Positions 5,293 through 61,923 are shown, counted from the first letter of the stretch. The stretch: 64,000 bases of DNA from an uncultured Eubacteriales bacterium (GCA_964587625.1 CAZPLU010000002.1:45816-109815), one strand, 5' to 3'. Notes: generated by a model not told the origin, from the letters alone. A program made the numbers and translations.

Positions 5293-5314
5293 TGTGAAAG
5301 GATGGTTATAAAAA

Positions 5315-5872: not shown

Positions 5873-5886
5873 AATGCGACAAATAC

Positions 5887-5919
5887 AACCCCCCACGCGG
5901 CAAGCCGCGCGGGGGGGTT
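5887..5919. terminator. GC-rich hairpin between convergent genes (possible bidirectional terminator)
   Basis: aaccccccacgcgg-caag-ccgcgcgggggggtt with one mismatch. It sits between the + gene ending at 5872 and the - gene ending at 5930. Confidence 0.6.
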
Positions 5920-5929
5920 ATTGTACGCC

Positions 5930-6721: not shown

Positions 6722-7332
6722 AAATATTCCTCCGTCTTATTTAAAGTTTTTAAAATCAGTTCTTCGATGACTTCGACTGTGACGAATGTCGGCGGCTCCG
6801 GCGGCAAGGTTGCGTAATAATTATTCAGGGTGTATTTTAACCAGCGTCCGGCCAGTTCTGCGGAGACGCTTCCGATGCCTGTGGGGACGGTTTTTTCGAG
6901 CAGCGGTTTGATTTTTTCATTCCACCAAAACCCGTCCATCACCGTTCGGTCGAACCGGAAGCACTCGTCCCAGCCCGGCCTCATCCCGCTGTGTTCGGGA
7001 TAGGTCAGCGTTTTTGCGCGCTCCCAGATGCCGTCATGGAAAAACTCGTCGAAAGCGGCGTCGGCGATGCAGTGGACGCAATAGCCGAGCAGCAGGTCAT
7101 GGCCGTATTTTTTTCGGTTTTCGCAATAAAACCTGCCGACATTTTTATACCACGCGCGGGGCGTTTCGGCGCGTAGATGCGCTGCCCAGCGCACATTTTT
7201 CGGCGCAAAGCCGTCGATATTGACGCTGTCGGGCAAAATGCAGCCGAGATAAAACTCCCCCGCGCCTTTTACGCGGCTGTCGGCTTTGGCGATCCCCTCG
7301 CCGACCAGCAGATGCATCATGGTGGACGCCAA
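6718..7332 (-). CDS. Hypothetical protein (tentatively zinc-dependent phospholipase C-like)
   Basis: 204-aa ORF whose stop overlaps the downstream gene's start by 4 nt. His/Asp-rich pattern (MMHLLVG..., LPDSVN, HCIADAAFDEFFHD). The family assignment is tentative. Confidence 0.3.
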   Translation of the reverse strand: MASTMMHLLVGEGIAKADSRVKGAGEFYLGCILPDSVNIDGFAPKNVRWAAHLRAETPRAWYKNVGRFYCENRKKYGHDLLLGYCVHCIADAAFDEFFHDGIWERAKTLTYPEHSGMRPGWDECFRFDRTVMDGFWWNEKIKPLLEKTVPTGIGSVSAELAGRWLKYTLNNYYATLPPEPPTFVTVEVIEELILKTLNKTEEYL

Positions 7333-22078: not shown

Positions 22079-22107
22079 TTTTAAAAATCATTCGTATTTG
22101 TTATAAT
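22079..22107 (+). promoter_or_regulatory. Extended -10 promoter candidate for the first WYL regulator
   Basis: TGtTATAAT (22099-22107) with a weak -35 (ttttaa), about 44 nt upstream of ATG 22151. Confidence 0.4.
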
Positions 22108-22150: not shown

Positions 22151-23044
22151 ATGAAAATCGACCGACTCATCGGCATACTGGCCGTTTTGCAACAAAACCG
22201 AAAAGTGACCGCGCCCTACCTCGCCGAAAAGTTCGAGGTCTCGCGGCGCACCATCAACCGCGACGTCGAGGATATCTGCCGCGCGGGGATCCCGGTTGTC
22301 ACCGCACAGGGGCAAAACGGCGGCATCTCTCTGATGGACGGCTTTTGCCTCGACACGACCGTGTTCACCGAGGAGGAATTGCAATCGATCTTCATCGGCT
22401 TAAAGACGCTCGACAGCGTGTCGGATAGTCCGAAATCGGGGCTGCTGGCGCAAAAGCTCAACGCGCCGCCCGCCGATTTGATGCGAATTGACCTCTCGTC
22501 TTTTTACAAAGAAAGCTTGTCGGCCAAAATCGAGCTGTTAAAAACCGCGATTGCACAGCGCCGCTATGTCTCGTTTCATTATTACTACACCAAGGGCGAA
22601 GAGGACAAGCGGATCGAGCCGTACATGATCGCCTACCAGTGGGCGGACTGGTATGTGTTCGGCTGGTGTACCGGGCGGAAGGATTTTCGGCTGTACAAGC
22701 TCAACCGGCTTTGGGAACTGCGCCTATGCGACGAGACATTTGCCCCGCGCGAGATCCCCGAGGAAAAAAAACGGTTCGGAACCAATTTCACCGACGACTA
22801 TTTTATCACCGCGATTTTCGACCCGTCCCTGAAATACCGGCTGGTCGAGGACCGGGGGCCGGGCTCTTTTACCGTCCTGCCGGACGGGCGGCTGAAAATG
22901 CGGTGGGGCTTCACCGACCCCGACGCCGCCGTTTTGTGGTTTTTGGGCTTCGGGGACAAGGTCGAAATCACCGACCCTCCCGAGATACGGGACAAGCTCA
23001 AATCGACCGCACGAAAAGTTTTTAAAAAGTATTCCGAATCATGA
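22151..23044 (+). CDS. HTH-WYL transcriptional regulator (YafY/PafBC-like architecture), copy 1
   Basis: MKIDRLIGILAVLQQNRKVTAPYLAEKFEVSRRTINRDVEDICRAGIPV (wHTH), then a WYL-type core ...RIEPYMIAYQWADWYVFGWCTGRKDFRLYKLNRL. Confidence 0.85.
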   Translation: MKIDRLIGILAVLQQNRKVTAPYLAEKFEVSRRTINRDVEDICRAGIPVVTAQGQNGGISLMDGFCLDTTVFTEEELQSIFIGLKTLDSVSDSPKSGLLAQKLNAPPADLMRIDLSSFYKESLSAKIELLKTAIAQRRYVSFHYYYTKGEEDKRIEPYMIAYQWADWYVFGWCTGRKDFRLYKLNRLWELRLCDETFAPREIPEEKKRFGTNFTDDYFITAIFDPSLKYRLVEDRGPGSFTVLPDGRLKMRWGFTDPDAAVLWFLGFGDKVEITDPPEIRDKLKSTARKVFKKYSES

Positions 23045-23051
23045 CATACTC

Positions 23052-23075
23052 CTGTCGTGTTCGATGGGTTATCCT
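23052..23075 (+). promoter_or_regulatory. TTGTCRKGT-N9-TAnnnT element, site A
   Basis: CTGTCGTGT-tcgatgggt-TATCCT. It starts 7 nt after the WYL-1 stop and lies 28 nt before ATG 23104. Confidence 0.55.
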
Positions 23076-23103
23076 ATAACAAATCGAATAGGGGGTATTT
23101 AAA

Positions 23104-23397
23104 ATGAACCAAGATAAAATCGATTCGCGGTGCGGGCTGCGTTGTTCCGATTGTACATATAAACAATCGCATGGCTGCGGCGGCTGTATCGAAACCAAAG
23201 GGAACCCGTTTCACGGAAAATGTCCCGTGGCCGCCTGTTGCCGGGACAGGGGCTTCGGCCACTGCGGGCAATGCCCCGACATCCCCTGCGAACTGCTGAC
23301 GCAATATTCCTGCGACCCCGAACACGGGGACACGCCCGCCGGCGCGCGCATCGAGCGGTGCAGGCGCTGGGCGCGAAACGAACCGATCAAAGTATAG
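23104..23397 (+). CDS. DUF3795-type cysteine-rich protein
   Basis: 97 aa with CGLRCSDC...GCGGC...CPVAACC...CGQCPDIPC. This small Cys-rich family is often found beside YafY-type regulators. Confidence 0.7.
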   Translation: MNQDKIDSRCGLRCSDCTYKQSHGCGGCIETKGNPFHGKCPVAACCRDRGFGHCGQCPDIPCELLTQYSCDPEHGDTPAGARIERCRRWARNEPIKV

Positions 23398-23475
23398 CGC
23401 GCCGCGGCGCGGGCATTTGGGTTGTAATGCGGAATTCTATGCCCCGCCGCTCAAATCGAAGGAAGGATTTTATTT

Positions 23476-23847
23476 ATGAAGTTGTGTTTTTTCATTCTCA
23501 ATGTGAACGATATTGAAATGATGAAGGCGTGGTACCGGGATGCCGCCGGTCTTAAATTGGTTTCCGAGTCCGCGGGTTATAAGGAATTTTTCACCGAAGA
23601 CGGGTTTTCGTTCAATCTCTGCCAAAAAAATCCGGCAGGGGCTTCACCGGCAAAACCGATCAACGAAACGATGAATATCGGCTTCGACCTCCCGACCTTC
23701 CGCGAGCTTGACGCCGCGTACGAGCGCCTGGTCAACGCCGGGGCGACGCCCGTGACCCCGCCGGCCACCGCCCCGTGGGGACACCGGATCGCCTATCTGG
23801 CCGACCCCGAGGGGAACATCCTCGCGCTGAATGCGATGAGGGAATAA
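23476..23847 (+). CDS. VOC (glyoxalase/bleomycin-resistance/dioxygenase) family protein
   Basis: 123 aa ending ...PWGHRIAYLADPEGNILAL, the typical VOC C-terminal motif. Confidence 0.8.
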   Translation: MKLCFFILNVNDIEMMKAWYRDAAGLKLVSESAGYKEFFTEDGFSFNLCQKNPAGASPAKPINETMNIGFDLPTFRELDAAYERLVNAGATPVTPPATAPWGHRIAYLADPEGNILALNAMRE

Positions 23848-23903
23848 ATACAAGGAGAGGTCATCCGTCCGCATGTGACGGCTTTTGGCCGAAGGATGAA
23901 CCA

Positions 23904-24812
23904 ATGGCAGGATATCATATCAAAATTGACGAGCTATGCAGAAGGTGCGGCATCGGCGGGCTCATAACAGCGCCCGTTCCGATTTCCGGCGGTCTGCTGC
24001 ATCAAATGTACGATGTGAGCACAACGGCCGGGAGGTTCGTCGTCAAAGTGTTAAATCCCGAAATCATGGCGAGAAGCGGCGCTTTCGGCAGTTACGCCGT
24101 CTCCGAAAAAATTGCCCGCAAGCTTTCCGGCAGCATCCCTGTGAGCTGTGCAAAACGTTGTGGAGAAAATGATATACAGGAACTGGAAGGGCAATATTAC
24201 TTGATTTATGACTTTATAAACGGAAAGTCGCTGCGGCAACGCGAAATTACGCCGCGGCACGCGCAAAAAGTCGGAGCTGTCGTCGCAAAAATCCATACGA
24301 CCGACTTTTCCGAACTGAATCTTATAAATGTTCGTCCGACCAACCCCCGGGTTTTCGATTGGCTTTCGCTCGCGCGAACAGGTGAGAGCCGCGATTTGAT
24401 ATGGCATCCGCTAATAACGGCAAACCTTGAAAAGCTGTCTTTTTTAACGGACCGCATGAACGAATCCCGCGCGGCTTTGTCTTCGAACGAAACCATTTGC
24501 CACGGTGACCTTGATTCGAAAAACGTCTTATGGCAAAACAATATCCCCACAATTATCGATTGGGAATCGGCATGGTTTTATAATCCTTGCCATGATTTTC
24601 TCGATACAGCGCTTTACTGGTCGAAAAACGAGAATGAGTCCATTGATTATATGAGATTTTCCGCTTTTATCGACGGTTACAGGAGTATCAAAATCATCCA
24701 GAATACTGACTGGAAAACGGTTTTGTACAGCGGATATTCCGCAAAACTCGGATGGCTTTACTATAACTTAAAACGTTCTGCCGGTGTCGATTGTTATGAT
24801 GAAGCAGAGTAA
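23904..24812 (+). CDS. Phosphotransferase (APH-like kinase) family protein, possibly truncated by an in-frame TAA
   Basis: ICHGDLDSKNVLW and IIDWES kinase motifs. GAAGGA RBS precedes ATG 23904. After TAA 24810-24812 the same frame stays open for 34 more codons. Confidence 0.7.
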   Translation: MAGYHIKIDELCRRCGIGGLITAPVPISGGLLHQMYDVSTTAGRFVVKVLNPEIMARSGAFGSYAVSEKIARKLSGSIPVSCAKRCGENDIQELEGQYYLIYDFINGKSLRQREITPRHAQKVGAVVAKIHTTDFSELNLINVRPTNPRVFDWLSLARTGESRDLIWHPLITANLEKLSFLTDRMNESRAALSSNETICHGDLDSKNVLWQNNIPTIIDWESAWFYNPCHDFLDTALYWSKNENESIDYMRFSAFIDGYRSIKIIQNTDWKTVLYSGYSAKLGWLYYNLKRSAGVDCYDEAE

Positions 24813-24929
24813 AATATCGGAACGGAGCAAGTTACGGCGACAATGAACGAAATCCTTGCATATGAAGAACACATAGACCAAATTTCGGACTTTTTAAAAA
24901 GAGAACTTGAATGATTTAAGGAGAAACAT

Positions 24930-25322
24930 ATGTTAATACCCCACCTTCACTTTAACGGTACTTGCAAACAAGCCGTCACCTTATATGAAGCCGCGTTCGG
25001 CGCAAAGGCCGAGAGCGTGATTTACAGCCATCAATACGACCCGTCTCAGCCCGTTAGCGACCGCGTCGCCCACGCCGTGATGAAAATCCACGGGCAGACG
25101 GTCTTTTTGAACGACCGCTTCGGCAACAAAGACCGAACCACCGACTGCGCCGTCCATCTGATTGTGATGTTCGAGAGCAAGGCCGCGTTATTATCTTGTT
25201 ACGAGCTTCTGAAAGAGGACAGCATCACGGTTGACCCGATGCAGGAATTGGCCTACAGCCTGCTCTGTGTGCAGTTCATCGATCGGTTCGGCGTGCTGTG
25301 GGGCTTTATGGTTGAGCAATGA
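24930..25322 (+). CDS. PhnB-like VOC superfamily protein
   Basis: LIPHLHFNGTCKQAVTLYEAAFGA... and C-terminal DRFGVLWGF are typical of the PhnB/3-demethylubiquinone-methyltransferase-like domain. Confidence 0.7.
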   Translation: MLIPHLHFNGTCKQAVTLYEAAFGAKAESVIYSHQYDPSQPVSDRVAHAVMKIHGQTVFLNDRFGNKDRTTDCAVHLIVMFESKAALLSCYELLKEDSITVDPMQELAYSLLCVQFIDRFGVLWGFMVEQ

Positions 25323-25380
25323 TCAAGCAAAACTTCTGTAAGTAATAATTTATTTTACTGTATACAAACACGTCATACTA

Positions 25381-25404
25381 TTGTCGTGTTCGTTGTGGTA
25401 ATAT
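25381..25404 (+). promoter_or_regulatory. TTGTCRKGT-N9-TAnnnT element, site B
   Basis: TTGTCGTGT-tcgttgtgg-TAATAT, 27 nt before ATG 25432. Confidence 0.55.
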
Positions 25405-25431
25405 GATAAAAAAACGGGAGGAAAAGTACAA

Positions 25432-25782
25432 ATGATTACGAAATTCCGCGGCATAAACATCTCTACAAAAAATCCAAAACGACTTGTTCTTTTTTATAAA
25501 GAGATATTGGGGCTTAAAATATTGGAAGACGATCCGAATGATGACGGCGTGGCGTTCGGCAATGGGGAAAATGAACCCGTCTTTTGGATTTGGGACGAAA
25601 ACAAGTGGGGGAAATCGACAACCGGAACGGTCACGCTGGTTTTTGACTGCGACGATCCCCAAAAAACATATGAGGAATTAAAACAAAAAGGCGTTGCGCT
25701 TGACCCTCCGTCCGTCGCGGATTGGGGCGGGACGGAACTTATTGTGAAAGACCCCGACGGCAACACGATCTTAATTTTATAA
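25432..25782 (+). CDS. VOC/glyoxalase family protein
   Basis: 116 aa. FYKEILGLK..., ...WGGTELIVKDPDGNTILI. Confidence 0.8.
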   Translation: MITKFRGINISTKNPKRLVLFYKEILGLKILEDDPNDDGVAFGNGENEPVFWIWDENKWGKSTTGTVTLVFDCDDPQKTYEELKQKGVALDPPSVADWGGTELIVKDPDGNTILIL

Positions 25783-25971
25783 TTTAAAGGGATTTTACGG
25801 GGTTTCAATCGGGCGTTTCCGCAACGGCCCGTATGATTTGAACGACGTCGTCACGGACCTGCCGGACGCCGAAACCCGAATGGATGAAATCCTCGGGGCC
25901 GTCCGTACGGCCAATTTCGGGAAATCCCCGAAGCGGTTTATGGGAAAAGAAATTTGAATCGGGGTGCGAAA

Positions 25972-26337
25972 ATGAAAAGATCGATGATGCAGGTCTATGT
26001 GAAAAACAGCGCGCAGGCAGTCCCGTTTTATCAAAACACATTCGGCGCGAAAGTAATTTGCTGCCATTATAACGCCGACAAAACCGTCGCCCACGCCGAG
26101 TTGGACGTTTTCGGGCAAATCCTTGCGATTTGCGAATCCGGAGAAAAAGAGACGGTCACGGGCAACGCCATGCAGTTTTGCCTGCATTTCGGCGCAGGAA
26201 ACGAGGAACTGGTGCGAAAAATCATCGGCAATCTCAGCCAGGATGGAAAAATTGTTTTCTCCGATCCGGTTGACTGGAGTCCGTTAGCGGCGGGGATTGT
26301 GGACAAATTCGGCGTGAATTGGTGCGTTTTTGTCTGA
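25972..26337 (+). CDS. PhnB-like VOC superfamily protein
   Basis: MQVYVKNSAQAVPFYQNTFGAK... and C-terminal DKFGVNWCV. Paralogous in pattern to the gene at 24930. Confidence 0.65.
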   Translation: MKRSMMQVYVKNSAQAVPFYQNTFGAKVICCHYNADKTVAHAELDVFGQILAICESGEKETVTGNAMQFCLHFGAGNEELVRKIIGNLSQDGKIVFSDPVDWSPLAAGIVDKFGVNWCVFV

Positions 26338-26446
26338 TATAGATGATAAGGGAAAAACGGTATCATCACGGTTGAACCCGCCCGCGAAAAGTCGGGAAGC
26401 TTTCTTCCGCCTGCGCTATAATTTTTTCGAAAAGGGGGCTTCAACC

Positions 26447-27298
26447 GTGGAAACACCGGCAATTCTCCAACAACTCAACGGGGCGATGGAATACCTCGAA
26501 GCGCGCCTCGGCGATGAGATCGATTTAAATGATTTGGCGCGCGTCGCCTGCGTCGCGCCGGACAGCTTCCTGCGCTTTTTCAGCTACATGACCGGGATGT
26601 CGCTGAGGGAGTATATCCGACGCAGGAGATTGACCCGCGCGGCGTATGAGCTGCGAGCCACGAACGCAAAAGTGATCGACGTCGCCGTTAGGTACGGCTA
26701 CGACAGCGCCGACGCGTTTTCAAGGGCGTTTATCCGGCAGCACGGGATCACGCCGACGCAGGCCAGAAACCCGAGTCGGCCGCTGAAAGCGTTTCCGCCC
26801 GCCTCCTTTCACATTGTGATGAACGGAGCGAAAGAAATGGAATTCAAACTCATTCAGGCAGGCGAAATCAAACTGCGCGGACTCTCGAAACAATTCAGCG
26901 GAGCAGCCGCCGACCGTTTCGAACAGGAGCACATCATGTGGGCAGACCACCACGACGATGTGCAAAACAAGGTCAGCACCGATGTCCCCGGCACGTGGTA
27001 CGGCGTCTGGGACGCGGGAAAGTACGCAATCGCCCGGGCGGAACAAGACGTCAACAGTAAAGACCTTGACGAGATCACAATTCCCGCGGGGACATACGCC
27101 GTGTTCAACACCGGTCCGGGCGGCTTTGCGGGAGACGAACTGCCCAAACTGCGCGAACAGGTCTTCGGCGCATGGCTGTCCGATTCCGGCTATGTTCAAA
27201 CAGCCGACCGCGAAGTCGAGGTTTATCACCTGTTTTCGAAAACCGAAAAATCCAAGCGGTATTATGAACTTTGGATTCCGGTGAAAAAGAATCAATAA
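26447..27298 (+). CDS. AraC-family regulator with a C-terminal GyrI-like effector-binding domain, copy 1
   Basis: HTH region LREYIRRRRLTRAAYEL...GYDSADAFSRAFIRQHGITPTQAR, then a GyrI-like half ending VEVYHL...YELWIPV. GTG 26447 lies 8 nt after AAGGGGG. Confidence 0.85.
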   Translation: METPAILQQLNGAMEYLEARLGDEIDLNDLARVACVAPDSFLRFFSYMTGMSLREYIRRRRLTRAAYELRATNAKVIDVAVRYGYDSADAFSRAFIRQHGITPTQARNPSRPLKAFPPASFHIVMNGAKEMEFKLIQAGEIKLRGLSKQFSGAAADRFEQEHIMWADHHDDVQNKVSTDVPGTWYGVWDAGKYAIARAEQDVNSKDLDEITIPAGTYAVFNTGPGGFAGDELPKLREQVFGAWLSDSGYVQTADREVEVYHLFSKTEKSKRYYELWIPVKKNQ

Positions 27299-27306
27299 TT
27301 GTGGGT

Positions 27307-27338
27307 CTCCCGCCATGCCGATATCGGCATGGCGGGAG
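27307..27338 (+). terminator. Perfect hairpin after AraC-1 (terminator candidate)
   Basis: ctcccgccatgccgatatcggcatggcgggag, followed by an A/T-rich stretch. Confidence 0.55.
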
Positions 27339-27362
27339 ATATTATATCTATATTCACGTTTT

Positions 27363-27401
27363 AAACCTGACATAGAGTTGTCAGGTTTGTTGTTTTATGA
27401 T
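27363..27401 (+). promoter_or_regulatory. TTGTCRKGT-N9-TAnnnT element, site C, embedded in a 10-bp perfect inverted repeat
   Basis: AAACCTGACA-tagagt-TGTCAGGTTT (27363-27388). TTGTCAGGT-ttgttgttt-TATGAT (27378-27401). Confidence 0.55.
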
Positions 27402-27487
27402 AAAATAAAGTCCGATGAATGAACGGGCAGCTTTCGCAAATTTTATCAACCATTTTCCCGTTCTGTCTGTTATCATGACAGCGTGAG

Positions 27488-28345
27488 GTGATCAAGCTGG
27501 AATATCATGAACATATCGGCGCCGCGCTCGACTATATCGAGGACAACCTGTGCGGGGAGCTGACGCTCGCGCGCATCGCCTGCGCGGCGGGCTATTCGGA
27601 ATACCACTTTCTGCGCATCTTCCGCGAAGCCACCGGGCTGACCCCCGCCGACTACATCCGCAAGCGGCGCCTGTCCGAAATCGTCCGGCGCATGCAGCGC
27701 CTGCGCATGATGAATGAGGACCGCCCCGCCTCGGAGATCGCCTTCGAGTTCGGCTTCAATTCCAAGGAAAATTTTTTGCGCGCGTTCAAGGCCGAGCACC
27801 ACATCCTTCCGACCGAATTCCGAAAAGCCGGAAACAGCTTGAAACTGTATGACCGGATCCGGTTCGACCCGCCTCCGATTCAGGCGGAGGGGCGGGTTTT
27901 AAAACTCGACGCCTTTGAATTGATCGTCTATCCGAGCGACGAGGATTATGCGCCCAACTTTTGGAACAAGTACAACGCGAAAAAATGGTCCGAGAAACTC
28001 TCCGGGGGTAAAATCGCCGAGGACTTCGGCGTCTGCAAATGGAACGAAACCGCCCAAAAACTCGATTATTACATCGGAATCCGAAGGAGCGACGTGCGCG
28101 GCGACCTCTCCGGGACGGTCATGCTTCCGATCCCCGGCGGGCTTTACGCCGTCTTCGACACGCCACCGTCGACGCCCTTCGACTTCGTCAACGCCATCCA
28201 CCGCACCTGGCGTTACATCGGCCGTGTCTGGCTGCCGCAAAACGGGTACCGGCGCACCGGTGGCTACGAGCTAGAGAGCTATGTCGAGCAGAGCCGCGCG
28301 TTTTCGGAGCGCATCTATATCCCAGTGGAAAAAGAGAGCCAATAA
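27488..28345 (+). CDS. AraC-family regulator with a C-terminal GyrI-like effector-binding domain, copy 2
   Basis: LTLARIACAAGYSEYHFLRIFREATGLTPADYIRKRRL...FNSKENFLRAFKAEHHILPTEFR, then a GyrI-like half ending ELESYV...RIYIPV. Confidence 0.85.
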   Translation: MIKLEYHEHIGAALDYIEDNLCGELTLARIACAAGYSEYHFLRIFREATGLTPADYIRKRRLSEIVRRMQRLRMMNEDRPASEIAFEFGFNSKENFLRAFKAEHHILPTEFRKAGNSLKLYDRIRFDPPPIQAEGRVLKLDAFELIVYPSDEDYAPNFWNKYNAKKWSEKLSGGKIAEDFGVCKWNETAQKLDYYIGIRRSDVRGDLSGTVMLPIPGGLYAVFDTPPSTPFDFVNAIHRTWRYIGRVWLPQNGYRRTGGYELESYVEQSRAFSERIYIPVEKESQ

Positions 28346-28428
28346 GAACGGGGCGGCTGCGTTTTGCCGTTGTAAATTTTACCCCGAACCCGACAGCTTC
28401 CCGTCAACTAAAACCCGGAGGCGATTTG

Positions 28429-29349
28429 ATGAAACTGGAGCGGCTGGTCGAGATCATCACGATCCTGCTGAACAAAAAGACCGTGACAGCGGCGGAGCTG
28501 GCCGGGCGGTTCGGCGTCTCGGTGCGCACGATCTACCGCGACGTCGAAGCGCTCTCGGCGGCGGGCGTCCCGGTCTGCACCGCGCAGGGGCAAAACGGCG
28601 GCATCTCGGTCATCGAGGGGTATGCGGTCAACCGGGCGCTGCTCTCCGATTCCGAGCGCGACAATATTTTGTTCGCATTGCATTCTTTACAAGCGACCAA
28701 ATACCCGGAGGTCGACGCGGTGCTTGAAAAACTCGGCACGATTTTCAAGAGTAACGCTTCCGACTGGATCTCGGTCGATTTTTCGCCCTGGGGCTCGAAC
28801 CCGAACGCCTACCACAAATTCACCGACATCAAGACCGCGATTTTGCATTGCAACGTGATCGAAATAGACTACCTGAACGCCCAGAACCAAAAATCCACCC
28901 GCCTTGTCGAACCGCTCCGGCTGGATTTCAAATATCAGGCGTGGTATTTATGGGGCTGGTGCCGCAAACGCGAGGACTACCGGATGTTCCGCATCTCGCG
29001 CGTCAAGCGGGTGCTCGTCACCGGCGAGATTTTCGACCGCTTCCGCAAACGCGACCCGAAGCCGCAAAAGGGCGGCGACGGCGAGGCCGGGCATAAACCG
29101 AACGTCCACTGCGTTCTGCAATTTACCGAAGAGGCGCTGTACCGCCTCTATGACGACTACGACGACGACCGAATCCGCGACAACGGCGACGGAACTTATA
29201 CGGTCGAGGTCGAATTTCCCGAGGACGGCTGGGTCTACGGCTATATCCTGTCGTTCGGGACCGCCGTCAAGGTGCTCTCCCCGCCCCATTTGCAAAAGAT
29301 CATCAGGGAGAAAAGCGGGAAAATTTTCGAATATTATCAGGATATATGA
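28429..29349 (+). CDS. HTH-WYL transcriptional regulator (YafY/PafBC-like architecture), copy 2
   Basis: MKLERLVEIITILLNKKTVTAAELAGRFGVSVRTIYRDVEALSAAGVPV, then ...RLVEPLRLDFKYQAWYLWGWCRKREDYRMFRISRV (literal WYL). CGGAGG RBS. Confidence 0.85.
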   Translation: MKLERLVEIITILLNKKTVTAAELAGRFGVSVRTIYRDVEALSAAGVPVCTAQGQNGGISVIEGYAVNRALLSDSERDNILFALHSLQATKYPEVDAVLEKLGTIFKSNASDWISVDFSPWGSNPNAYHKFTDIKTAILHCNVIEIDYLNAQNQKSTRLVEPLRLDFKYQAWYLWGWCRKREDYRMFRISRVKRVLVTGEIFDRFRKRDPKPQKGGDGEAGHKPNVHCVLQFTEEALYRLYDDYDDDRIRDNGDGTYTVEVEFPEDGWVYGYILSFGTAVKVLSPPHLQKIIREKSGKIFEYYQDI

Positions 29350-29356
29350 TAAACTG

Positions 29357-29380
29357 TTGTCAGGTCTGGCGTGGTAATAT
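29357..29380 (+). promoter_or_regulatory. TTGTCRKGT-N9-TAnnnT element, site D
   Basis: TTGTCAGGT-ctggcgtgg-TAATAT. It starts 7 nt after the WYL-2 stop and lies 36 nt before ATG 29417. Confidence 0.55.
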
Positions 29381-29416
29381 ATATAAAACAATATTGAGAA
29401 CTAAGAGGTAACAGTC

Positions 29417-30172
29417 ATGGGTAAAATGTGGACACCGTGGTCGGGTTGTTATCCGGCAAGTGAAGGTTGTAAATACTGTTATTTTTATGGTGAACATTCA
29501 AAGCGTCATAGGCAAAATGATGTTATAAAAACAAATGATTTTTACAAACCGCTTGAAACAATATATATGCCGCGTAAAAAGATCACGAAACTAAAAATTG
29601 AAAGCAGCGATAAAAATGTAGGCGTTTGTTTCGATTCAGATTTCTTTATAGAAGAAGCTGATGAATGGCGGAACGAAGCGTGGAGTATTATGAAAAAACG
29701 CCCCGATTTGACCTTTACTTTTTTAACAAAAAGAATCGACCGTTTTCACGTTTCACTCCCGGACGACTGGGGTGATGGGTACGATAATGTCCGAATAGGC
29801 TGTACGGTTGAAAATCAAGAAATGGCTGATTATCGAATGCCGCTGTATATATCTTTTCCTATCAAGCATCGGTTTGTTATATGCAGTCCATTACTCGGAA
29901 AAATAGACTTTACACCGTATTTACACCGAGTGGAATCGGTAGGCGTGCATGGCGAATCCGGCAGGGACGCGCGGGAGTGCGATTTTGGTTGGGTTCTCGA
30001 TATTAGAGAACAGTGTATCAATGCGGGCATTTCATTTGGTTTTGGAGGAACCGGTACGTTATTTCGCCGGGACGGAGAACTTCGTAAAATAAATCCTTAT
30101 ATGCAAAAACGCATGGCTCGTGAAATGGATATAAACATAGATTCAATATATGGTATCAATGACGTAGATTAA
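29417..30172 (+). CDS. DUF5131 (phage Gp37/Gp68-like, three-Cys motif) protein
   Basis: N-terminus MWTPWSGCYPASEGCKYCY (CX6CX2C) is typical of the Gp37/Gp68 family. The gene is visibly AT-rich compared with its neighbours. Confidence 0.7.
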   Translation: MGKMWTPWSGCYPASEGCKYCYFYGEHSKRHRQNDVIKTNDFYKPLETIYMPRKKITKLKIESSDKNVGVCFDSDFFIEEADEWRNEAWSIMKKRPDLTFTFLTKRIDRFHVSLPDDWGDGYDNVRIGCTVENQEMADYRMPLYISFPIKHRFVICSPLLGKIDFTPYLHRVESVGVHGESGRDARECDFGWVLDIREQCINAGISFGFGGTGTLFRRDGELRKINPYMQKRMAREMDINIDSIYGINDVD

Positions 30173-30216
30173 CGCCCGTATTTCAATGGTTTTGGATAGT
30201 TGTACATTGTGAACCG

Positions 30217-30237
30217 TTGTCAGGTTTGGTGTAATAC
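30217..30237 (+). promoter_or_regulatory. TTGTCAGGT element, site E (short-spacer variant)
   Basis: TTGTCAGGT-ttggtg-TAATAC, 20 nt before ATG 30258. The spacer is 3 nt shorter than in the other copies. Confidence 0.35.
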
Positions 30238-30257
30238 CGCTTTTTGAGGTGATGATA

Positions 30258-31007
30258 ATGGAATATTCGCGCGAACAGATTTTAGAGATCATGAATCATA
30301 GCCGGTATCCTCTCTCAAACAAATATAATTCTGATTGGATACTCCAAAACGCAATGGGGTCACATTGCCTTTGGCTGCAAGAATCATTGACGCAAGTCAT
30401 GAACTTAAAGCCTGATATGCGCGTGTTAGACATGGGTTGCGGAAAGGCCATCAGTTCAATTTTTCTCGCCAAAGAATTTGATGTCAGGGTATGTGCTGCC
30501 GATTTGCGAATCAGTCCCACCGATAACTGGAAACGGATTTGTGAAATGGGCCTTGAGGACAAGGTATTTCCTATCCGTGCCGACGCGAACGACCTGCCTC
30601 TCGCGGATCATTATTTTGATGTGATGGTAAGCATCAATTCTTTGTTTTTATATGCGACGGGAGAGACGTTTCTCAAAGAACATTTGTTGAGAAATATCAA
30701 GCCGGGCGGTGAAATCGGGATTATCGTCCCAAGTTTTCTGCGTGAATATTCCGATAACTACCCGGAAAGTTACAAACCATATATTGACGACTTTGGAATA
30801 AAAGGTTGGCATACAGAAGGGTGGTGGAAGAATCATCTTGAAAAAACAGGGCTGGTTGATGTAATCTTAGCGGATCATTTGGCTGAAAATGAGGGGAAAG
30901 AACTGTATCATAAATCGGCGTATATGTGGAACGCGCATGAAGAACCGTTTAATGTTGTCGCATGGGAAGATATAACCTTCGCAAGAATAATAGCAAAAAG
31001 AAAGTGA
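30258..31007 (+). CDS. Class I SAM-dependent methyltransferase
   Basis: Motif I VLDMGCGKAISSIFLA, then post-I AADL... and DVMVSINSL. AT-rich gene. Confidence 0.8.
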   Translation: MEYSREQILEIMNHSRYPLSNKYNSDWILQNAMGSHCLWLQESLTQVMNLKPDMRVLDMGCGKAISSIFLAKEFDVRVCAADLRISPTDNWKRICEMGLEDKVFPIRADANDLPLADHYFDVMVSINSLFLYATGETFLKEHLLRNIKPGGEIGIIVPSFLREYSDNYPESYKPYIDDFGIKGWHTEGWWKNHLEKTGLVDVILADHLAENEGKELYHKSAYMWNAHEEPFNVVAWEDITFARIIAKRK

Positions 31008-31164
31008 ATTGCATCGCTGGCTAACCCATGCTTTTGAAGTTGTACATCGTGCATTATTTTGGAGGTATTGTTATGCAGGAATATACTTATCATGATTTTT
31101 TAAATATTATCATGTGCAAGACAAAACGGTCTTTGCAATTTAAAATGAAAGTGAGGAATTAAAA

Positions 31165-31749
31165 ATGGCAAATACATCACCATTCGACAGCATGATCTCA
31201 ACGCTTCCCCAAGCCCTCAAAGACGAGATCACGCAAACCGATCAATCCTTAAAATCCCTGCGCCCGTTGAAATTCAAGCGTACCGTTGACCCGAAGGCAA
31301 AAAAGATCACCTATGTCGCCTCCGACTACGGCGTTTCCTACATGTTTAAAGTCACCGATGATGTGTTGGCGCACAATTTTCAATGGTACATCGTTTATAA
31401 CGGCAAACCGGAGACCTGGCACCGCAGAGCCGATTATATGGAAGAAACGCTTGTCTATATCGCTAAAAACGATTTTCCGTTGGCTGAACGCATTTATAAC
31501 GCGTTAAGAACCTGCCCCGGTCTTGATAATTGCTACGGCCAAAGATGTCTCGCGAGAACGGTTTATGCGTTTAACGGGCAGAAAAAGCTGACCTGCCACG
31601 GAAAAGTTGAACCAGGTTTTAATCATGAGGGTTTTCGTGACGCAAGGGAATTCTTCCGTTATTTTAACGAACTTGTAAAAGAAAAAATAGCCGACGGAGA
31701 GCCGCCGCCGGAAAAAATCATTGTGTGCAAAACAAAACGTTCGCTGTAA
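31165..31749 (+). CDS. Hypothetical protein carrying a C-terminal Cys module shared with the genes at 35810 and 40919
   Basis: 194-aa ORF with a GAGGAA RBS. C-terminal LRTCPGLDNCYGQRCLARTVYAFNGQKKLTCHGKVEPGF. Confidence 0.45.
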   Translation: MANTSPFDSMISTLPQALKDEITQTDQSLKSLRPLKFKRTVDPKAKKITYVASDYGVSYMFKVTDDVLAHNFQWYIVYNGKPETWHRRADYMEETLVYIAKNDFPLAERIYNALRTCPGLDNCYGQRCLARTVYAFNGQKKLTCHGKVEPGFNHEGFRDAREFFRYFNELVKEKIADGEPPPEKIIVCKTKRSL

Positions 31750-31787
31750 TGTAAAATATCGAACATTTTTATTATGCTCTTTAAAAG

Positions 31788-31822
31788 CTGACAGTCAGTT
31801 GTCAGGTTTGGCCTGATAAAAT
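31788..31822 (+). promoter_or_regulatory. TTGTCRKGT-N9-TAnnnT element, site F, with an inverted repeat
   Basis: CTGACA-gtcagt-TGTCAG (31788-31805). TTGTCAGGT-ttggcctga-TAAAAT (31799-31822), 30 nt before ATG 31853. Confidence 0.55.
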
Positions 31823-31852
31823 GGTATCATCAATTCGGAAAGGGTTTTGCAA

Positions 31853-32293
31853 ATGGAACCGAAAATCATCAAAAAGAAGCGGATGACCCTCGCGGGGCTC
31901 TGGGGCGACGGCAGAATGACCGCCGCGCTTTGGCAGGATTTTGAGGAAAAAGCCGAAAAATCCGGCTTCACCGCAGCCGACAGCTGCGGCTGGGAGATCC
32001 GCACCGACGGGGAGCCCGGATATGATTGCTTTGTCGGCTTTGCGGCCGGCGAAAAGGCCCCGGAAGGTTTTCAAGCGGTCACGCTCCCCGCCTCGGAATA
32101 CACAGCGTTCGACGTGATGGTCGCCAACGGTTATGCCAGCGAAAACGCCAACATGAACGCGTGGCTCGAGACCAATAAAGAGAAATACACGCAAGCCGAA
32201 CTCGACGGGAAAAAGTTCGTGCTCGAGTGTTACAGCGAGCGTTTCAAGCAAGGCATCGTCGAAATTTGGATCCCGTTAAACAAATCCATTTGA
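31853..32293 (+). CDS. GyrI-like small-molecule-binding domain protein
   Basis: 146 aa. MEPKIIKKKRMTLAGLWG... ending ...VEIWIPL, the usual GyrI-like/SbmC pattern. Confidence 0.7.
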   Translation: MEPKIIKKKRMTLAGLWGDGRMTAALWQDFEEKAEKSGFTAADSCGWEIRTDGEPGYDCFVGFAAGEKAPEGFQAVTLPASEYTAFDVMVANGYASENANMNAWLETNKEKYTQAELDGKKFVLECYSERFKQGIVEIWIPLNKSI

Positions 32294-32429
32294 TCTTTTT
32301 TACGCGGATTTTTCACCGGAAATGATCGGAGGCTGATGGAAAATGCGGACGCCCCTTCGATTTAATTTAGCGCGCCGCGCGGACGAACTGAAAAGAATAG
32401 TTTTTGAGAATGACAAAGGAGGGTTCATT

Positions 32430-33119
32430 ATGCAACCGGTAAAGTTTTTTCAAAAGGGCGAAATTCTGTTGGGGGGATTTCATGTCGGCTCGGATATAGA
32501 CAAACGCTGGGATAAATTCGGACAGGAAGAAGAAAAAGCGAAACTGACCAACATCGTGGATGGAACCGGCTTTGAAAGACGGGTTTATTCGTCAGACGGG
32601 ATAAATATTTTTACGGGTGTTGAAGTGACCGATAAAAATATATTGCCCAGCTACGAACTGCTGGTCATCCCTCCCGCTCATTATGCGGTGTTTGAAGTAA
32701 ATTGCAATGCCGACATAGATCGGCAATTTTCAGAGATCGATAGCTGGCTTGCCGACAATAAGAATCAGTACGGTCAAGTGAAGTGGGAAAATGGCGATGC
32801 GGCTTATCGGATTATTTGGTCTGGGCGATATGAAAAAGAAATGATCTGTGAGATGTGGATTCCCGTTTTCAGGTTCTGCCAATCCTGCGCCATGCCCATG
32901 ACCAAGCCGGAGGACTTCGGCACAGAAGCCGACGGAAGCAAAAGCAGTGATTACTGTTGCCACTGTTATCAGAACGGAAAATTCACTTGTGGGAACACAC
33001 TCGAAGAAGCCGTTGAAGAAAACATACGGTTCTGGCGCAAAGATGGTGATAAGAGCGACGACGAAGCGCGGGCGCGTATCATGGGGGTGTTCCCGAAACT
33101 CAAGAGGTGGGTGAAATGA
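32430..33119 (+). CDS. GyrI-like domain protein with a C-terminal zinc-ribbon
   Basis: The GyrI-like half ends CEMWIPV. Then FCQSCAMPM...SSDYCCHCYQNGKF (putative zinc ribbon). AAAGGAGGG RBS. Confidence 0.7.
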   Translation: MQPVKFFQKGEILLGGFHVGSDIDKRWDKFGQEEEKAKLTNIVDGTGFERRVYSSDGINIFTGVEVTDKNILPSYELLVIPPAHYAVFEVNCNADIDRQFSEIDSWLADNKNQYGQVKWENGDAAYRIIWSGRYEKEMICEMWIPVFRFCQSCAMPMTKPEDFGTEADGSKSSDYCCHCYQNGKFTCGNTLEEAVEENIRFWRKDGDKSDDEARARIMGVFPKLKRWVK

Positions 33120-33559
33120 TCTTAACACCCTACCTCATCGTGAAGGATATGGAAAAATCCCTTGCGTTTTACACGGCGTTTTTCGGAGCGGAACCGGATA
33201 CCTACTGTCCGGGGCGATTCGTTAATTTTGATGCAGGAAATACGCGCCTGTCTTTATATAATCCTCTATACGATGATTCGCTTTTCCAAAGCGGCGCTGA
33301 TCTTAGCGAAAAATTCAATGAAGCGTACATAGCGGCGAAACAGATGCCTGTGCAATACGGAAACAATGTTGTCTTGAATATCGGCGTCGATGATTTGGCA
33401 AGCGAATATGAGCGGGTAAAAAAGCTGGGGATCGGTGAAATGTCCGAATTGGTCTATATCAATATCGCCGCGCCCTATTGGTGTTTTTGGCTGACCGACC
33501 CGGACGGAAATTGCATTGAAATTACAGGCGCATATACGCCGGAGAGGAAATCATCATGA
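33116..33559 (+). CDS. VOC/glyoxalase family protein
   Basis: MILTPYLIVKDMEKSLAFYTAFFGAEP... ending WLTDPDGNCIEI. Its ATG overlaps the previous stop (ATGA). Confidence 0.7.
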   Translation: MILTPYLIVKDMEKSLAFYTAFFGAEPDTYCPGRFVNFDAGNTRLSLYNPLYDDSLFQSGADLSEKFNEAYIAAKQMPVQYGNNVVLNIGVDDLASEYERVKKLGIGEMSELVYINIAAPYWCFWLTDPDGNCIEITGAYTPERKSS

Positions 33560-33965
33560 CCGAACTCGAAAAAGTAAGCCAAGAAACCATGCGTTTCATG
33601 CGGGGGAAATATGGGCGGAAAATATGCGGATTTCATTCTGCGATGGTGTGCGTACCCGTTACCTTGAATCCGGGGAAAAACGCCCGGATAAGCACCAGCT
33701 TCTGCTTGATTTCGACGATGACTCGGCTATCGTCTGCTCGGTTCAGATGTACGGCGGCAGCCCTAAAATCCACATTAAAGGATATGCGTGACGGCGGCGG
33801 GCGCGATACCGAAAAAGACCTGTACGGCAAGCCGGGCGGCTACCAAACAACCCTATCGAGCAAAACACTGGCATATCCCTGCCGCGCCTGTGGCGACGGA
33901 TTAAAGCGTGAGGCGTATTTGGGCGGTAATATCTATTCTGCCCTACCTGCCAGCCGTTGGAGAGG
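33556..33965 (+). pseudogene. Chimeric remnant: 5' end of a 34548-like gene fused to internally deleted, frameshifted Fpg/Nei-like fragments
   Basis: Bases 33571-33613 repeat 34572-34614 (43 nt, 1 mismatch). Frame-2 FCDGVRTRYL...PDKHQLLLDFDDDSAIVCSVQMYGG matches the middle of the Fpg/Nei paralogs. DMRDGGGRDTEKDLYGKPGGY...YPCRACGDGLKREAYLGGNIY matches their C-termini. The H2TH region is missing and a 1-nt deletion breaks the last CxxC. Confidence 0.7.
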
Positions 33966-33975
33966 AAGTAGTTTT

Positions 33976-34551
33976 ATGAAACATACCGTAACAACCGAAT
34001 TTTTTGCGGCAGGGGAATTTCTTGTCCTAAAAGGAATCGTAAAACTGTACGATTCGGAGGATTCATCTATCCCTGCGAATGACGAAGAAACATGGGATAT
34101 AATCAGACGGTGGTTGAACGACGGCTCTGTTGACCGTTTAAAAAAAGCGGCGGGTTCCGACGCCGTGTATATATTATTTTGCAACACCTGTGTGCGTAAC
34201 GACGCCGAAAAATGTTACGACTGCTCGTGCGACATAGCCTGCGAAAACTTTGGCGGCGCGAATGCTGCGGACGGATATGAAATTGTCCGGCTGCTGCCGT
34301 GTGAATACGCTGTGTTCGACTGTGATTTCAACGGCGAAATTACAATGCCGAAAGCGCACGAGAAACCGGACGCTATGTTTTGGGGCGAATGGCTGAAAAA
34401 GAATCCGTATGTTTCCGCGATTGACGATCCCGCGAACTGGTTAGGCAACGGATATGCTTCGATTGAGCTTTACACGCCTTTCGACCCGGACGCGAATAAA
34501 TTTAACGCGAAGATATGGTATCCGATTGTCAGAAAGGAAGAAAATCCATGA
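33976..34551 (+). CDS. GyrI-like/effector-binding-domain-like protein (tentative)
   Basis: 191 aa starting MKHTVTTEFFAAGEFLVLKG and ending ...IELYTPFD...AKIWYPI. Its own RBS (GGAGAGGAAG) lies inside the remnant's 3' end. Confidence 0.5.
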   Translation: MKHTVTTEFFAAGEFLVLKGIVKLYDSEDSSIPANDEETWDIIRRWLNDGSVDRLKKAAGSDAVYILFCNTCVRNDAEKCYDCSCDIACENFGGANAADGYEIVRLLPCEYAVFDCDFNGEITMPKAHEKPDAMFWGEWLKKNPYVSAIDDPANWLGNGYASIELYTPFDPDANKFNAKIWYPIVRKEENP

Positions 34552-35168
34552 GCGGCAAAACCGAAATGCAGAAAGTCAGCCAAGAAACCATGCGTTTCAT
34601 GCGGGGGAAATATGCGCTGGATGAGTTCGGCAACGGAAAAGACCAGCTTGCTTTTATCGACGGCGACGAAACCGTGTTGACCATTGCCATACGAAACGGT
34701 TATTATGATTTTGCAGTTGGGCAAGAGGTCATACGGGTTGCCGATCTCGACGCGCTCGAAAAAGCCAAAGAGATGATCACGGCCGCAAAAAACCCCAACC
34801 GCAAGCCGTTCCCGAAAACCCATATTCATTTTTCCAATTGCGGGCATCGCTGCGATCTTTGCGTTCATTACAAAGGCGAGACCCCGGTCGGCGCCGAGGA
34901 GCGTGATTTTGTTTTAGAGTGTCACAAAGCAGTATACGGTGATTTTGTTTGGGAGATGAATTGCGGCGGCTGTCATTTTCCCGATTGTACCGTCGAAAGC
35001 GTGCATTGTAAAAAAGGGAAAGGCATTGATCGGTGTTGGGCCTGCGAAAATTATTCAACATGCCTGAAAACGGCGGGCTGGCCGCCTGAAATCCATACGC
35101 GCGCCATTACCGCAGATCAAGTGACACGGGCGATACTGCCTTATGTGAAAGGGCAATACGGAAATTAA
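34548..35168 (+). CDS. Hypothetical protein with a C-terminal DUF3795-like Cys-rich domain
   Basis: ATG overlaps the previous stop (ATGA). C-terminal half CGHRCDLCVHY...CGGCHFPDC...CWACENYSTC. Confidence 0.5.
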   Translation: MSGKTEMQKVSQETMRFMRGKYALDEFGNGKDQLAFIDGDETVLTIAIRNGYYDFAVGQEVIRVADLDALEKAKEMITAAKNPNRKPFPKTHIHFSNCGHRCDLCVHYKGETPVGAEERDFVLECHKAVYGDFVWEMNCGGCHFPDCTVESVHCKKGKGIDRCWACENYSTCLKTAGWPPEIHTRAITADQVTRAILPYVKGQYGN

Positions 35169-35193: not shown

Positions 35194-35817
35194 ATGAACG
35201 TCAAATCCTATCTAACCGAAATCGCCGTACAAAACGGCCTTGCCGCAGAATCCATGCAATTCCCCGACTGCGAGATCGACCCCGCGAAAATCAAGGTCAT
35301 GATGATCAACGAAGTGGTGCCGAAAAACCCGGACGACTGGTTTTACAGCGAAGCCCGCGACCCTGAAAACAGGAGAAACGCGCTCGGCTTGTTCGAGGGC
35401 GCGGGCGTACCCGTCAAAAGCATGCGCGACATCCTCGATTTGGGCATCTATATCACCGCCGCTTTAAAAACCCCGAAAGTAGGTTCTGCAGCCGATCCCG
35501 AAGCCATCCGGGCGCAGCTCCCGCTGCTGGAAGCGGAACTCGCGCTGTTCCCGAACCTCAGGGTCATCATGCTCATGGGCGACGTGGCGATAAAAATGGT
35601 CAACATGATTGCGAAGGCGCAAACGAAAAAGAACGCCTGCCAATCGGGCGCGGCGGGCAGACGCCGGCATTGGGCTAACGAAAAATTTTATTGGAACGGC
35701 ATCCGCGTTTTTCCGTCCTATATCATGACCGGCAAGAACCTTCTGATCGAGCCGTTCAAACGCGACACGATTACGGAGGACATCCGCAAAATGATGGAGG
35801 TGATCAAGAATGTCTGA
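35194..35817 (+). CDS. Uracil-DNA glycosylase superfamily protein with divergent motifs (tentative)
   Basis: 207 aa. KVMMINEVVP stands where UDG motif A (GxxPG / GINPG) lies, and VFPSYIMTG where motif B (HPS...) lies. Length and spacing are consistent with the UDG fold. Confidence 0.5.
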   Translation: MNVKSYLTEIAVQNGLAAESMQFPDCEIDPAKIKVMMINEVVPKNPDDWFYSEARDPENRRNALGLFEGAGVPVKSMRDILDLGIYITAALKTPKVGSAADPEAIRAQLPLLEAELALFPNLRVIMLMGDVAIKMVNMIAKAQTKKNACQSGAAGRRRHWANEKFYWNGIRVFPSYIMTGKNLLIEPFKRDTITEDIRKMMEVIKNV

Positions 35818-61797: not shown

Positions 61798-61923
61798 ATT
61801 GATGTCTCCTCTCAAACAACTCCGGAAAACGGTACCGATTTGGCGAGTATCCCCACTTCTGCCATCTATAACATTTTATACCGCCGCTTGCATTTTTGCA
61901 AGAGACCGGCGGATTTTCAGATT

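Follow-up and report, generated by a model that had tools for sequence, protein, structure and literature searches.

Palindromic operator-promoters without a -35 box beside two HTH-WYL-WCX regulators of an uncultured Eubacteriales bacterium

Introduction

Which protein reads a promoter-like box that recurs beside two WYL regulator genes, and what does the box control? The question is raised by a 64,000-nucleotide stretch of DNA from an uncultured Eubacteriales bacterium (GCA_964587625.1, CAZPLU010000002.1:45816-109815), hereafter called the window. Here the sequence TTGTCRKGT-N9-TANNNT lies upstream of several gene starts, close to the genes of two helix-turn-helix (HTH)-WYL-WCX proteins, which we call WYL-1 and WYL-2. 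An earlier note on this DNA had taken the box for an element of the kind bound by the actinobacterial regulator PafBC, had proposed one regulon under both WYL proteins, and knew of no such architecture outside Actinobacteria. Our analysis leads to a different picture. Five of the six boxes are real operator-promoter elements, all of them imperfect palindromes. We favour, with a probability of roughly 0.6, the reading that they are regulator-dependent promoters on which homodimeric WYL activators of the DriD/SiwR type, responsive to DNA damage, would drive a genotoxin/xenobiotic defence island.

WYL regulators number about 2.8 per genome in Bacillota (PMC6789036). Our literature search found no study of the operator, promoter design or targets of a promoter-binding Bacillota HTH-WYL-WCX regulator of such a kind. 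The promoter design itself is already known outside Actinobacteria; what is newly documented, in 122 loci, is the Bacillota families with their operator and predicted targets.

Operator-Promoter Elements in the Window

The window was scanned with TTGTCRKGT-N9-TANNNT, allowing at most one mismatch, and the background was taken from 100 shuffles. Six matches were obtained, all on the + strand, at 23052 (A), 25381 (B), 27378 (C), 29357 (D), 30217 (E) and 31799 (F); the shuffles gave an expectation of 0.43 and none of the 100 reached six. All six are intergenic, with + strand start codons 20-90 nucleotides (nt) downstream, and the earlier description of them was correct in this respect. The TTGTC box is the promoter-proximal half only of a larger element. 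In A, B, C, D and F an inverted half-site lies 6 nt upstream of it, and these five sites are imperfect palindromes of 20-22 bp with the form (C/T)GACA-N6-TGTC(A/G). Their pentamer cores are 11 bp apart from centre to centre, a distance that fits the requirement of a dimeric helix-turn-helix protein. Exactly 12 nt downstream of the proximal TGTCR, each of the five has a TAnnnT -10 box, which is often TG-extended, and none has a -35 box.

Element A (23040..23075, like all five on the + strand) consists of the halves CATGACA-tactcc-TGTCGTG and the -10 box TATCCT at 23070-23075, 12 nt after TGTCG. Element B (25369..25404) reads CACGTCA-tactat-TGTCGTG, with one core change in the distal half (GTC for GAC), and has the extended -10 box TGgTAATAT at 25396-25404. 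The halves of C (27366..27401) are CCTGACA-tagagt-TGTCAGG, followed by TATGAT at 27396-27401. Those of D (29345..29380) are TATGATA-aactgt-TGTCAGG, followed by TGgTAATAT with the -10 box at 29375-29380, and those of F (31787..31822) are GCTGACA-gtcagt-TGTCAGG, followed by TGaTAAAAT with the -10 box at 31817-31822. The boxes of A and D had been seen to begin 7 nt after the stop codon of a WYL gene. The gene coordinates confirm this, and the reason is that the stop codon belongs to the operator: TGA of WYL-1 (23042-23044) and TGA of WYL-2 (29347-29349) are the TGA of the distal half-site in A and D, respectively.

A position weight matrix was trained on sites from other species only and compared with a null of 1.08 Mb of shuffled DNA, in which the maximum score was 14.4. 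It gave 37.8 for C, 29.1 for F, 25.7 for B, 24.5 for A and 15.4 for D. In the same scan nothing else in the 64 kb, site E included, reached a score of 8. Site E (30217..30240, + strand) had been counted as the sixth copy of one element. It is an isolated TTGTCAGGT in which the distal half-site is absent and TAATAC stands 9 and not 12 nt after TGTCA. Since it breaks the 12-nt rule, has no distal half and scores below 8, it is not supported as a functional operator-promoter, and the notion of a repeated element holds for the other five.

Three further candidates were rejected. A possible seventh site at 61806 (- strand), picked up with a regular expression, lacks the flanks and coincides in part with a gene's start codon and ribosome-binding site. 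The sigma-70 reading of site C (TTGTCA-17-TAAAAT) is absent from the other window sites and from homologous sites. Finally, the distal TGACA/TTGACA, if taken as a -35 box, would stand 22-23 nt from the -10 box.

Conservation at Homologous Regulator Genes

At E<=1e-20 there are 1,373 homologues of WYL-2 and at least 7,101 of WYL-1. The names that homologues bear, together with a T-box leader elsewhere in the window, assign this DNA to Bacillota, probably to the Oscillospiraceae. Two sets of homologous loci were surveyed: 80 WYL-2-type genome loci (L001-L080) from Clostridia, Paenibacillus, Enterococcus, Streptococcus and Lactobacillus, and 80 WYL-1-type metagenome loci. In 122 of the 160 loci (Clostridia, Bacilli, metagenomes) the ends of the homologous HTH-WYL-WCX genes carry the operator, with 136 oriented sites in all, which argues for the earlier proposal that the boxes belong to the adjacent regulators.

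As a control for half-site spacing, we determined for each spacer length what share of all GACR-Nx-YGTC cores in the loci lies no more than 150 bp from an end of a WYL gene. In the WYL-2-type set the proportions were 1/42 for N4, 33/69 for N5, 46/74 for N6, 0/56 for N7 and 1/38 for N8. In the WYL-1-type set they were 1/15 for N3, 1/17 for N4, 0/9 for N5, 61/93 for N6, 0/20 for N7, 0/10 for N8 and 0/17 for N9. There is a second operator class, TGACA-N5-TGTCA, which has the half-site spacing of the proteobacterial regulators DriD and DdaA (examples are L075 8895, L064 8901 and L038 1788). The N5 spacing accounts for 32 of the 136 related sites and N6 for about three quarters; all five window sites are N6.

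The distance to the -10 box is nearly constant. When the strand that runs in the direction of the WYL gene is read, 125 of 140 cores have TAnnnT exactly 12 nt behind TGTCN and 11 others have it at 11 nt; the opposite-strand control gave 5 at 12 nt and 3 at 11 nt. N5 and N6 sites do not differ in this 12-nt distance, and the proximal half-site is therefore the part that is phased with the -10 box. The best -35 match, with a 16-18 nt spacer, agreed at two or fewer of six positions in 87.5% of sites, versus 53.6% at random positions, and at four or more in 0.7% of sites versus about 13%. The TGTCR box had been judged too near the -10 box to be a -35 box, and the -10 box to stand at a fixed distance from it; both points are borne out by the survey. 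With a fixed -10 distance and no -35 box, the palindrome occupies the -35 position, its centre being near -33, and the promoter is made up of this operator and a -10 box, frequently an extended one.

About one third of the related sites are upstream of the WYL gene, all with a phased -10 box. Among the 92 downstream sites, the WYL stop codon TGA is at the same time the TGA of the distal TGACA in 38, and in 32 more the gene ends with a TAA that falls within the operator's TAAT flank. Because the stop codon is inside the operator, regulator gene, operator and promoter form one compact unit, which stands before a variety of genes. An operator placed at a stop codon, like D, is what is seen most often in the family.

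The Regulators and Their Probable Cognate Sites

WYL-1 (22151..23044, + strand, 297 amino acids) and WYL-2 (28429..29349, + strand, 306 amino acids) are encoded 5 kb apart. Both are single modules with an N-terminal winged HTH, a central WYL and a C-terminal WCX domain. HTH_11, WYL and WCX of Pfam are above cut-offs in both proteins (WYL-1: WYL 1.4e-15, HTH_11 8.9e-13, WCX 7.9e-12; WYL-2: WYL 5.3e-19, WCX 5.7e-15), and WYL-2 also exceeds the cut-off for HTH_PafC (1.9e-8). The two proteins are 28% identical, with a nearly identical recognition helix (VS-RTI-RDVE). Its arginines R33 and R37 (RTIxRD) do not vary in the alignment of either family, and their counterparts in PafB (RMFERD) are R46 and R50; the corresponding arginines are missing from the aligned helix of PafC. 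The WYL triplet is canonical, QAWYLWG in WYL-2 and ADWYVFG in WYL-1, and not the RWHVR of the repressors CapW and BrxR. The loop between strands beta4 and beta5 of the WYL domain is FRISR in WYL-2, with F187, R188 and R191 invariant. This FRxxR loop aligns with arginines of PafBC and SiwR that bind single-stranded DNA (ssDNA), and it may have the same role here.

Among PDB sequences the closest relatives are PafBC (5.6e-33) and PafC (3.9e-18), both ahead of BrxR and CapW; DriD, too dissimilar in sequence, is not among the PDB sequence-search matches of the WYL proteins. A fold search ranked PafBC (1e-15) before DriD (3e-13), CapW (4e-11) and BrxR (2e-10), a ranking that applies at the domain level only, because the predicted structure is only moderate (pLDDT 69, pTM 0.39). 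PafBC, which the earlier note had put forward, is thus the closest solved relative, with DriD second by fold and CapW and BrxR behind. With PADLOC, both proteins had strong matches to generic WYL models only, and no strong ones to the CapW- or BrxR-specific models. The WYL-1 gene has an ordinary sigma-A type promoter at 22080..22107 on the + strand (TTTAAA-16-TATAAT with a TG extension, 10/12 in a consensus scan), and the palindrome scan found no operator palindrome upstream of it.

If there are two regulators and five operators, which regulator serves which site? WYL-1-type loci carry the subtype CA-TGACA...TGTC-GTG, with a proximal GTG in 38 of 59 sites and CA before the distal TGAC in 49 of 59. 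By contrast, the proximal GTG occurs in 0 of 77 sites at WYL-2-type loci, which have AGG, ATA or AAG instead. In the window, A and B are of the CATGACA/TGTCGTG subtype and C, D and F of the TGACA/TGTCAGG subtype, with the distal half of D degenerate. From this covariation of operator subtype with regulator clade we infer that WYL-1 probably serves A and B, and WYL-2 probably serves C, D and F. The apparently separate operator subtypes do not agree with the idea of one regulon under both WYL proteins.

Relation to Known WYL Systems

PafBC recognises tGTCgg-N10-tAnnnT at promoters without a -35 box, where R46 and R50 of PafB read the GTC and PafC contacts domain 4 of sigma (PMC8635444). The likeness to this element is genuine. 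The half-site sequence matches (TGTCRnn-N10-TAnnnT here), its position agrees within 1 nt (the spacer being 1 nt longer here, as already noticed), the -35 box is absent, and the two GTC-reading arginines are kept as R33 and R37. The differences are equally clear. PafBC is a heterodimer or a tandem fusion, whereas the window proteins are single-module and form no PafB/PafC-like pair or fusion. The PafBC box is non-palindromic and PafB alone touches DNA, while the operators here have a conserved inverted distal half, as in DriD, DdaA and SiwR. PafBC has a regulon of some 150 genes and a link to pafA and the Pup-proteasome locus, while the regulon visible in the 64 kb scanned is local, like that of SiwR. 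Of a PafBC-analogous regulon, what remains is therefore the WYL-linked promoter with a GTC box and without a -35 box.

DriD of Caulobacter crescentus is a homodimer binding ATACGACAGTAACTGTCGTAT; its promoters have no recognisable -35 box, and the site lies over the place of one, with a spacing to the -10 box that does not vary. On RNA polymerase DriD touches beta and the alpha C-terminal domain, not sigma (PMC13004042). DdaA of Acinetobacter is an activator that binds CGACAATATGTGTCG (PMC13010146). Both are homodimeric WYL activators of SOS-independent DNA-damage responses, and they place the architecture outside Actinobacteria. The Bacillota system shares with them the HTH-WYL-WCX protein, an operator over the -35 position at a fixed -10 distance in promoters without a -35 box, and the pseudo-palindromic core, which is ATACGACA-N5-TGTCGTAT in DriD, CGACA-N5-TGTCG in DdaA and TGACA-N5/6-TGTCR in Bacillota. 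It differs from them in phylum, in having the regulator stop codon embedded in the operator, and in half-sites whose separation, in the window and roughly three quarters of the related sites, is 1 bp greater (N6). Unlike those of DriD, the genes seen here are of a local detoxification type and not didA, recA or ssb.

SiwR of Mycobacterium smegmatis is a homodimeric activator whose imperfect palindrome lies between the -35 and -10 positions of a neighbouring DinB-type operon, which in some species has a glyoxalase-like gene instead. The operon is induced by zeocin, hydrogen peroxide (H2O2) and mitomycin C. SiwR binds ssDNA through R204 and R207, and both the HTH residues R38 and R42 (R-x3-R) and the R-x2-R residues of the WYL domain are needed (PMC10693628). 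Common to SiwR and the present system are a palindromic operator, likened here by description and not by sequence, and a regulon of neighbouring genes for small proteins with a putative detoxifying role (DinB_2, DUF664 in SiwR); DinB_2, DUF1706 and glyoxalase genes also follow Bacillota operators. SiwR, which comes from another phylum, has its gene and its target transcribed divergently; in the present system the promoter of the target begins within the 3'-terminal part of the regulator gene.

CapW and BrxR are homodimeric, palindrome-binding HTH-WYL-WCX repressors that are released by ssDNA and have RWHVR in place of WYL (PMC11662680). They have the same three-domain fold as the window proteins, but their operator sequence is different and they are linked to phage-defence systems, none of which is seen here. 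MbpR of Lactiplantibacillus plantarum, the one characterised WYL factor of Bacillota that our literature search turned up, is a monomer that binds inside coding regions and senses cyclic di-GMP; it works differently and was rejected as a model.

Proposed Mechanism and Rival Explanations

A homodimer activated by ssDNA is suggested by the palindrome, by residue conservation and by the closest relatives, and homodimeric activators of the DriD/SiwR type are the most likely regulators here, rather than a PafBC-like heterodimer. In the mechanism that we propose, each WYL regulator would bind (C/T)GACA-N6-TGTC(A/G) as a homodimer through its winged helix-turn-helix domains, in place of a -35 box. 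From this fixed position the dimer would help the housekeeping RNA polymerase to start at the TAnnnT -10 box, often TG-extended. WYL-1 would act at A and B, and WYL-2 at C, D and F, hence also on its own operon. By analogy with DriD, DdaA, SiwR and PafBC, the WYL domain would sense ssDNA arising from DNA damage, and the regulator would thereby be switched on. The output would be small-molecule-binding or detoxifying proteins (GyrI-like, VOC/bleomycin-resistance, DUF3795, kinase, methyltransferase, UDG-like), which together may constitute an inducible defence island against genotoxins or xenobiotics.

Several observations weigh against this interpretation. B and D have degenerate distal half-sites, and the score of D is barely above the null maximum. 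In the WYL-1 loop, YKLNR, the F-R pair is replaced by Y-K, a conservative change. The structure prediction is, as mentioned, moderate, and the functions of the predicted controlled genes are family-level matches only. The -10 box lies 12 nt from TGTCR here, as against about 11 nt from TGTCG in DriD, a value that we counted from a published "optimised -35" oligonucleotide. Finally, TG is present at -15/-14 in 78 of 136 promoters (57%), and near-consensus -10 hexamers such as TATAAT and TATACT are frequent. Extended -10 promoters of Bacillota can fire without a -35 box, and a repressor on the -35 region would fit them.

Could the WYL proteins then be repressors, as CapW and BrxR are, with a dimer sitting on the -35 region of self-active extended -10 promoters and leaving upon binding ssDNA or another ligand? 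The many promoters with extended -10 boxes make this a serious rival. Operator and core promoter overlap, CapW and BrxR homodimers likewise bind palindromes from which ssDNA releases them, and a palindrome without a -10 box before the WYL-2 gene, present in the window and in an orthologous locus (L161), resembles a roadblock or autorepression site. We nevertheless consider repression the less likely reading. The WYL triplet is not RWHVR, PafBC and DriD (the latter by fold only) rank above CapW and BrxR in sequence and fold, and the operator core is that of DriD and DdaA and the half-site that of PafBC, not the CapW site. No defence system adjoins the WYL genes of the window, whose neighbours are VOC, GyrI-like, DUF3795, AraC, kinase and methyltransferase genes. 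The distance of 12 nt to the -10 box stays unchanged over phylum-level divergence and over two half-site spacings, and this favours an activator, since docking on RNA polymerase needs such phasing and repression does not.

The remaining explanations are much less probable. A strict analogue of PafBC would be a WYL-1/WYL-2 heterodimer with one HTH on an asymmetric -26 box and the other on sigma domain 4, controlling one shared DNA-damage regulon. The two paralogous regulators 5 kb apart, the TTGTCRKGT half-site with a -10 distance within 1 nt of the PafBC motif, and the rank of PafBC and PafC as best PDB sequence matches would suit it. It is made very improbable by the conserved distal half of palindromic sites, by the fact that each clade has its own operator subtype beside its own genes, and by single-module proteins that both possess a DNA-reading R-x3-R helix, whereas PafC lacks those arginines. 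Least probable of all is that the palindromes are RNA hairpins (terminators or attenuators behind the upstream gene), or that some other factor binds them, for example the AraC-GyrI regulators, two of which, of the AraC family, are encoded within the island. Site C does fold at -15.1 kcal/mol (z -4.3) with a T-rich run after it, F reaches -12.8, and a terminator scan flags 27362-27389. D forms no hairpin, A, B and typical homologous sites are within about 1.5 standard deviations of shuffles, and a proper U-tract is absent, so that folding was rejected as a general explanation. The TGACA/TGTCA core is, moreover, invariant in sequence and not covarying. The third of sites located upstream of the WYL gene, all with their phased -10 box, also speak against a hairpin. 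The sites track WYL genes in most loci, and no AraC-family protein appears among the tallied first-gene families.

Predicted Targets and Their Significance

Assuming that homodimeric WYL activators do act at these operators, what would they control? The first gene after the operator was tallied in 51 WYL-2-type and 35 WYL-1-type loci. GyrI-like genes were found in 21/51 and 15/35, respectively. Next in frequency in the WYL-2-type loci came Zn_ribbon_2 (17/51), DUF1706 of the ClbS family (5/51), DinB_2 (4/51) and SDR (4/51), with single cases of nitroreductase, GNAT and Fapy glycosylase. The WYL-1-type loci had DUF3795 (9/35) and Glyoxalase (4/35), and also flavin reductases and GNAT. GyrI-like and Zn_ribbon_2, the commonest first genes in WYL-2-type loci, are both present behind site F of the window. 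Resistance to DNA-damaging natural products has been connected in the literature with GyrI-like cyclopropane hydrolases, ClbS, VOC enediyne-binding proteins and NapW-like SDRs, and such genes are reported to be widespread outside the producer organisms (PMC5684135, PMC9854587); for the genes tallied here this is a hint at the level of the family. The families concerned (GyrI-like, VOC/bleomycin-resistance, DUF3795, Zn-ribbon, ClbS-like, DinB-like) point to inducible resistance to genotoxins or xenobiotics as the putative role of the controlled genes.

These results supply a testable operator-promoter consensus for two large protein families, a rule for pairing regulator with site, and a list of predicted controlled genes. 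If the regulators are indeed activators that sense ssDNA, many gut and environmental Clostridia and Bacilli would switch on resistance proteins of the ClbS-like, GyrI-like and bleomycin/enediyne-binding types upon DNA damage, which would matter for the ecology of colibactin and for the inactivation of drugs by the microbiome. PafBC, DriD and Bacillota promoters share the placement of the GTC half-site, which suggests a common docking mode on RNA polymerase. It is tempting to speculate, tentatively and as something possible rather than probable, that a GTC about 26-28 nt upstream, without a -35 box, is an ancient cross-phylum code for WYL activation, shared by PafBC, DriD/DdaA and the Bacillota regulators. 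According to the same speculation, a portable module (regulator gene, operator beginning inside its stop codon, promoter without a -35 box) would in Bacillota have been placed before interchangeable genotoxin-resistance genes: GyrI-like hydrolases, ClbS-like DUF1706, bleomycin/enediyne-binding VOC, DinB and SDR. Gut and environmental Clostridia would, in that case, possess a resistome inducible by DNA damage and directed against colibactin-like and other natural products that target DNA.

Gene Content of the Island

Gene families in the window were assigned with Pfam and NCBIfam. Behind A, the predicted controlled genes are DUF3795 (23104-23397), a VOC gene of the glyoxalase-bleomycin-resistance type (23476-23847), an intact APH-type kinase gene (23904-24812) and a PhnB-like VOC gene (24930-25322). 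Those behind B are VOC (25432-25782), YjdN-like VOC (25954-26337) and AraC-GyrI regulator 1 (26448-27298), and a strong terminator-like hairpin at 27305-27340, with a 16-bp stem, closes the operon.

Site C, which has the best matrix score, is followed by AraC-GyrI regulator 2 (27488-28345) and then by WYL-2. As it heads an operon that contains WYL-2, with no terminator in between, WYL-2 is probably autoregulated, controlling its own operon through C. The palindrome before the WYL-2 gene mentioned above, ACCCGACA-N6-CGTCAACT (28388..28409, + strand), is weak, with a GACA-N6-CGTC core and no -10 box, and stands just 5' of the WYL-2 ribosome-binding site. A clearer palindrome, also without a -10 box, is at the same place (6959-6985) in L161, the locus of an 89% orthologue, and the element may be an internal roadblock or an autoregulatory site. 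L161 also has an operator nearly identical to site C (4634-4677), followed by a UvrD-family helicase gene (4768-6936) and then the WYL-2 orthologue; the helicase gene takes the position that the AraC-GyrI gene has in the window.

The predicted genes after D are DUF5131 (29417-30172), probably also the methyltransferase gene (30258-31007), and a gene of unknown function for 194 amino acids (31165-31749). The DUF5131 protein has a weak, below-cut-off match (5.6e-10) to TIGR04471, "radical SAM mobile pair protein A", and no adjacent partner gene is evident. Behind F there are a GyrI-like gene (31853-32293), a GyrI-like + Zn_ribbon_2 gene (32430-33119), a VOC gene (33107-33559), a Cass2-domain gene (33556-34551), a gene for a DUF3795 protein (34515-35168) and a UDG-like gene (35194-35817). 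A PDB sequence search gave no informative match for the window GyrI-like protein. The window VOC protein had weak PDB matches (E about 1e-4) to entries named only as glyoxalase/bleomycin-resistance proteins, which we take to be the tiancimycin-binding TnmS set.

The G+C content is 0.42-0.49 over 29000-35000, the stretch that carries the genes behind D and F, versus about 0.55 on both sides. This drop suggests that the stretch was acquired more recently than the rest of the island. The 14-mer AGTTGTACATYGTG has two intergenic + strand copies, at 30198-30211, upstream of the methyltransferase gene and beside site E, and at 31038-31051, upstream of a 29-codon open reading frame (31074-31163). The 14-mer may serve some other factor as a binding site. 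Farther along the window, a T-box leader is present on the - strand at 56583-56806 (Rfam RF00230, 118 bits), which fits the Bacillota origin of the DNA.

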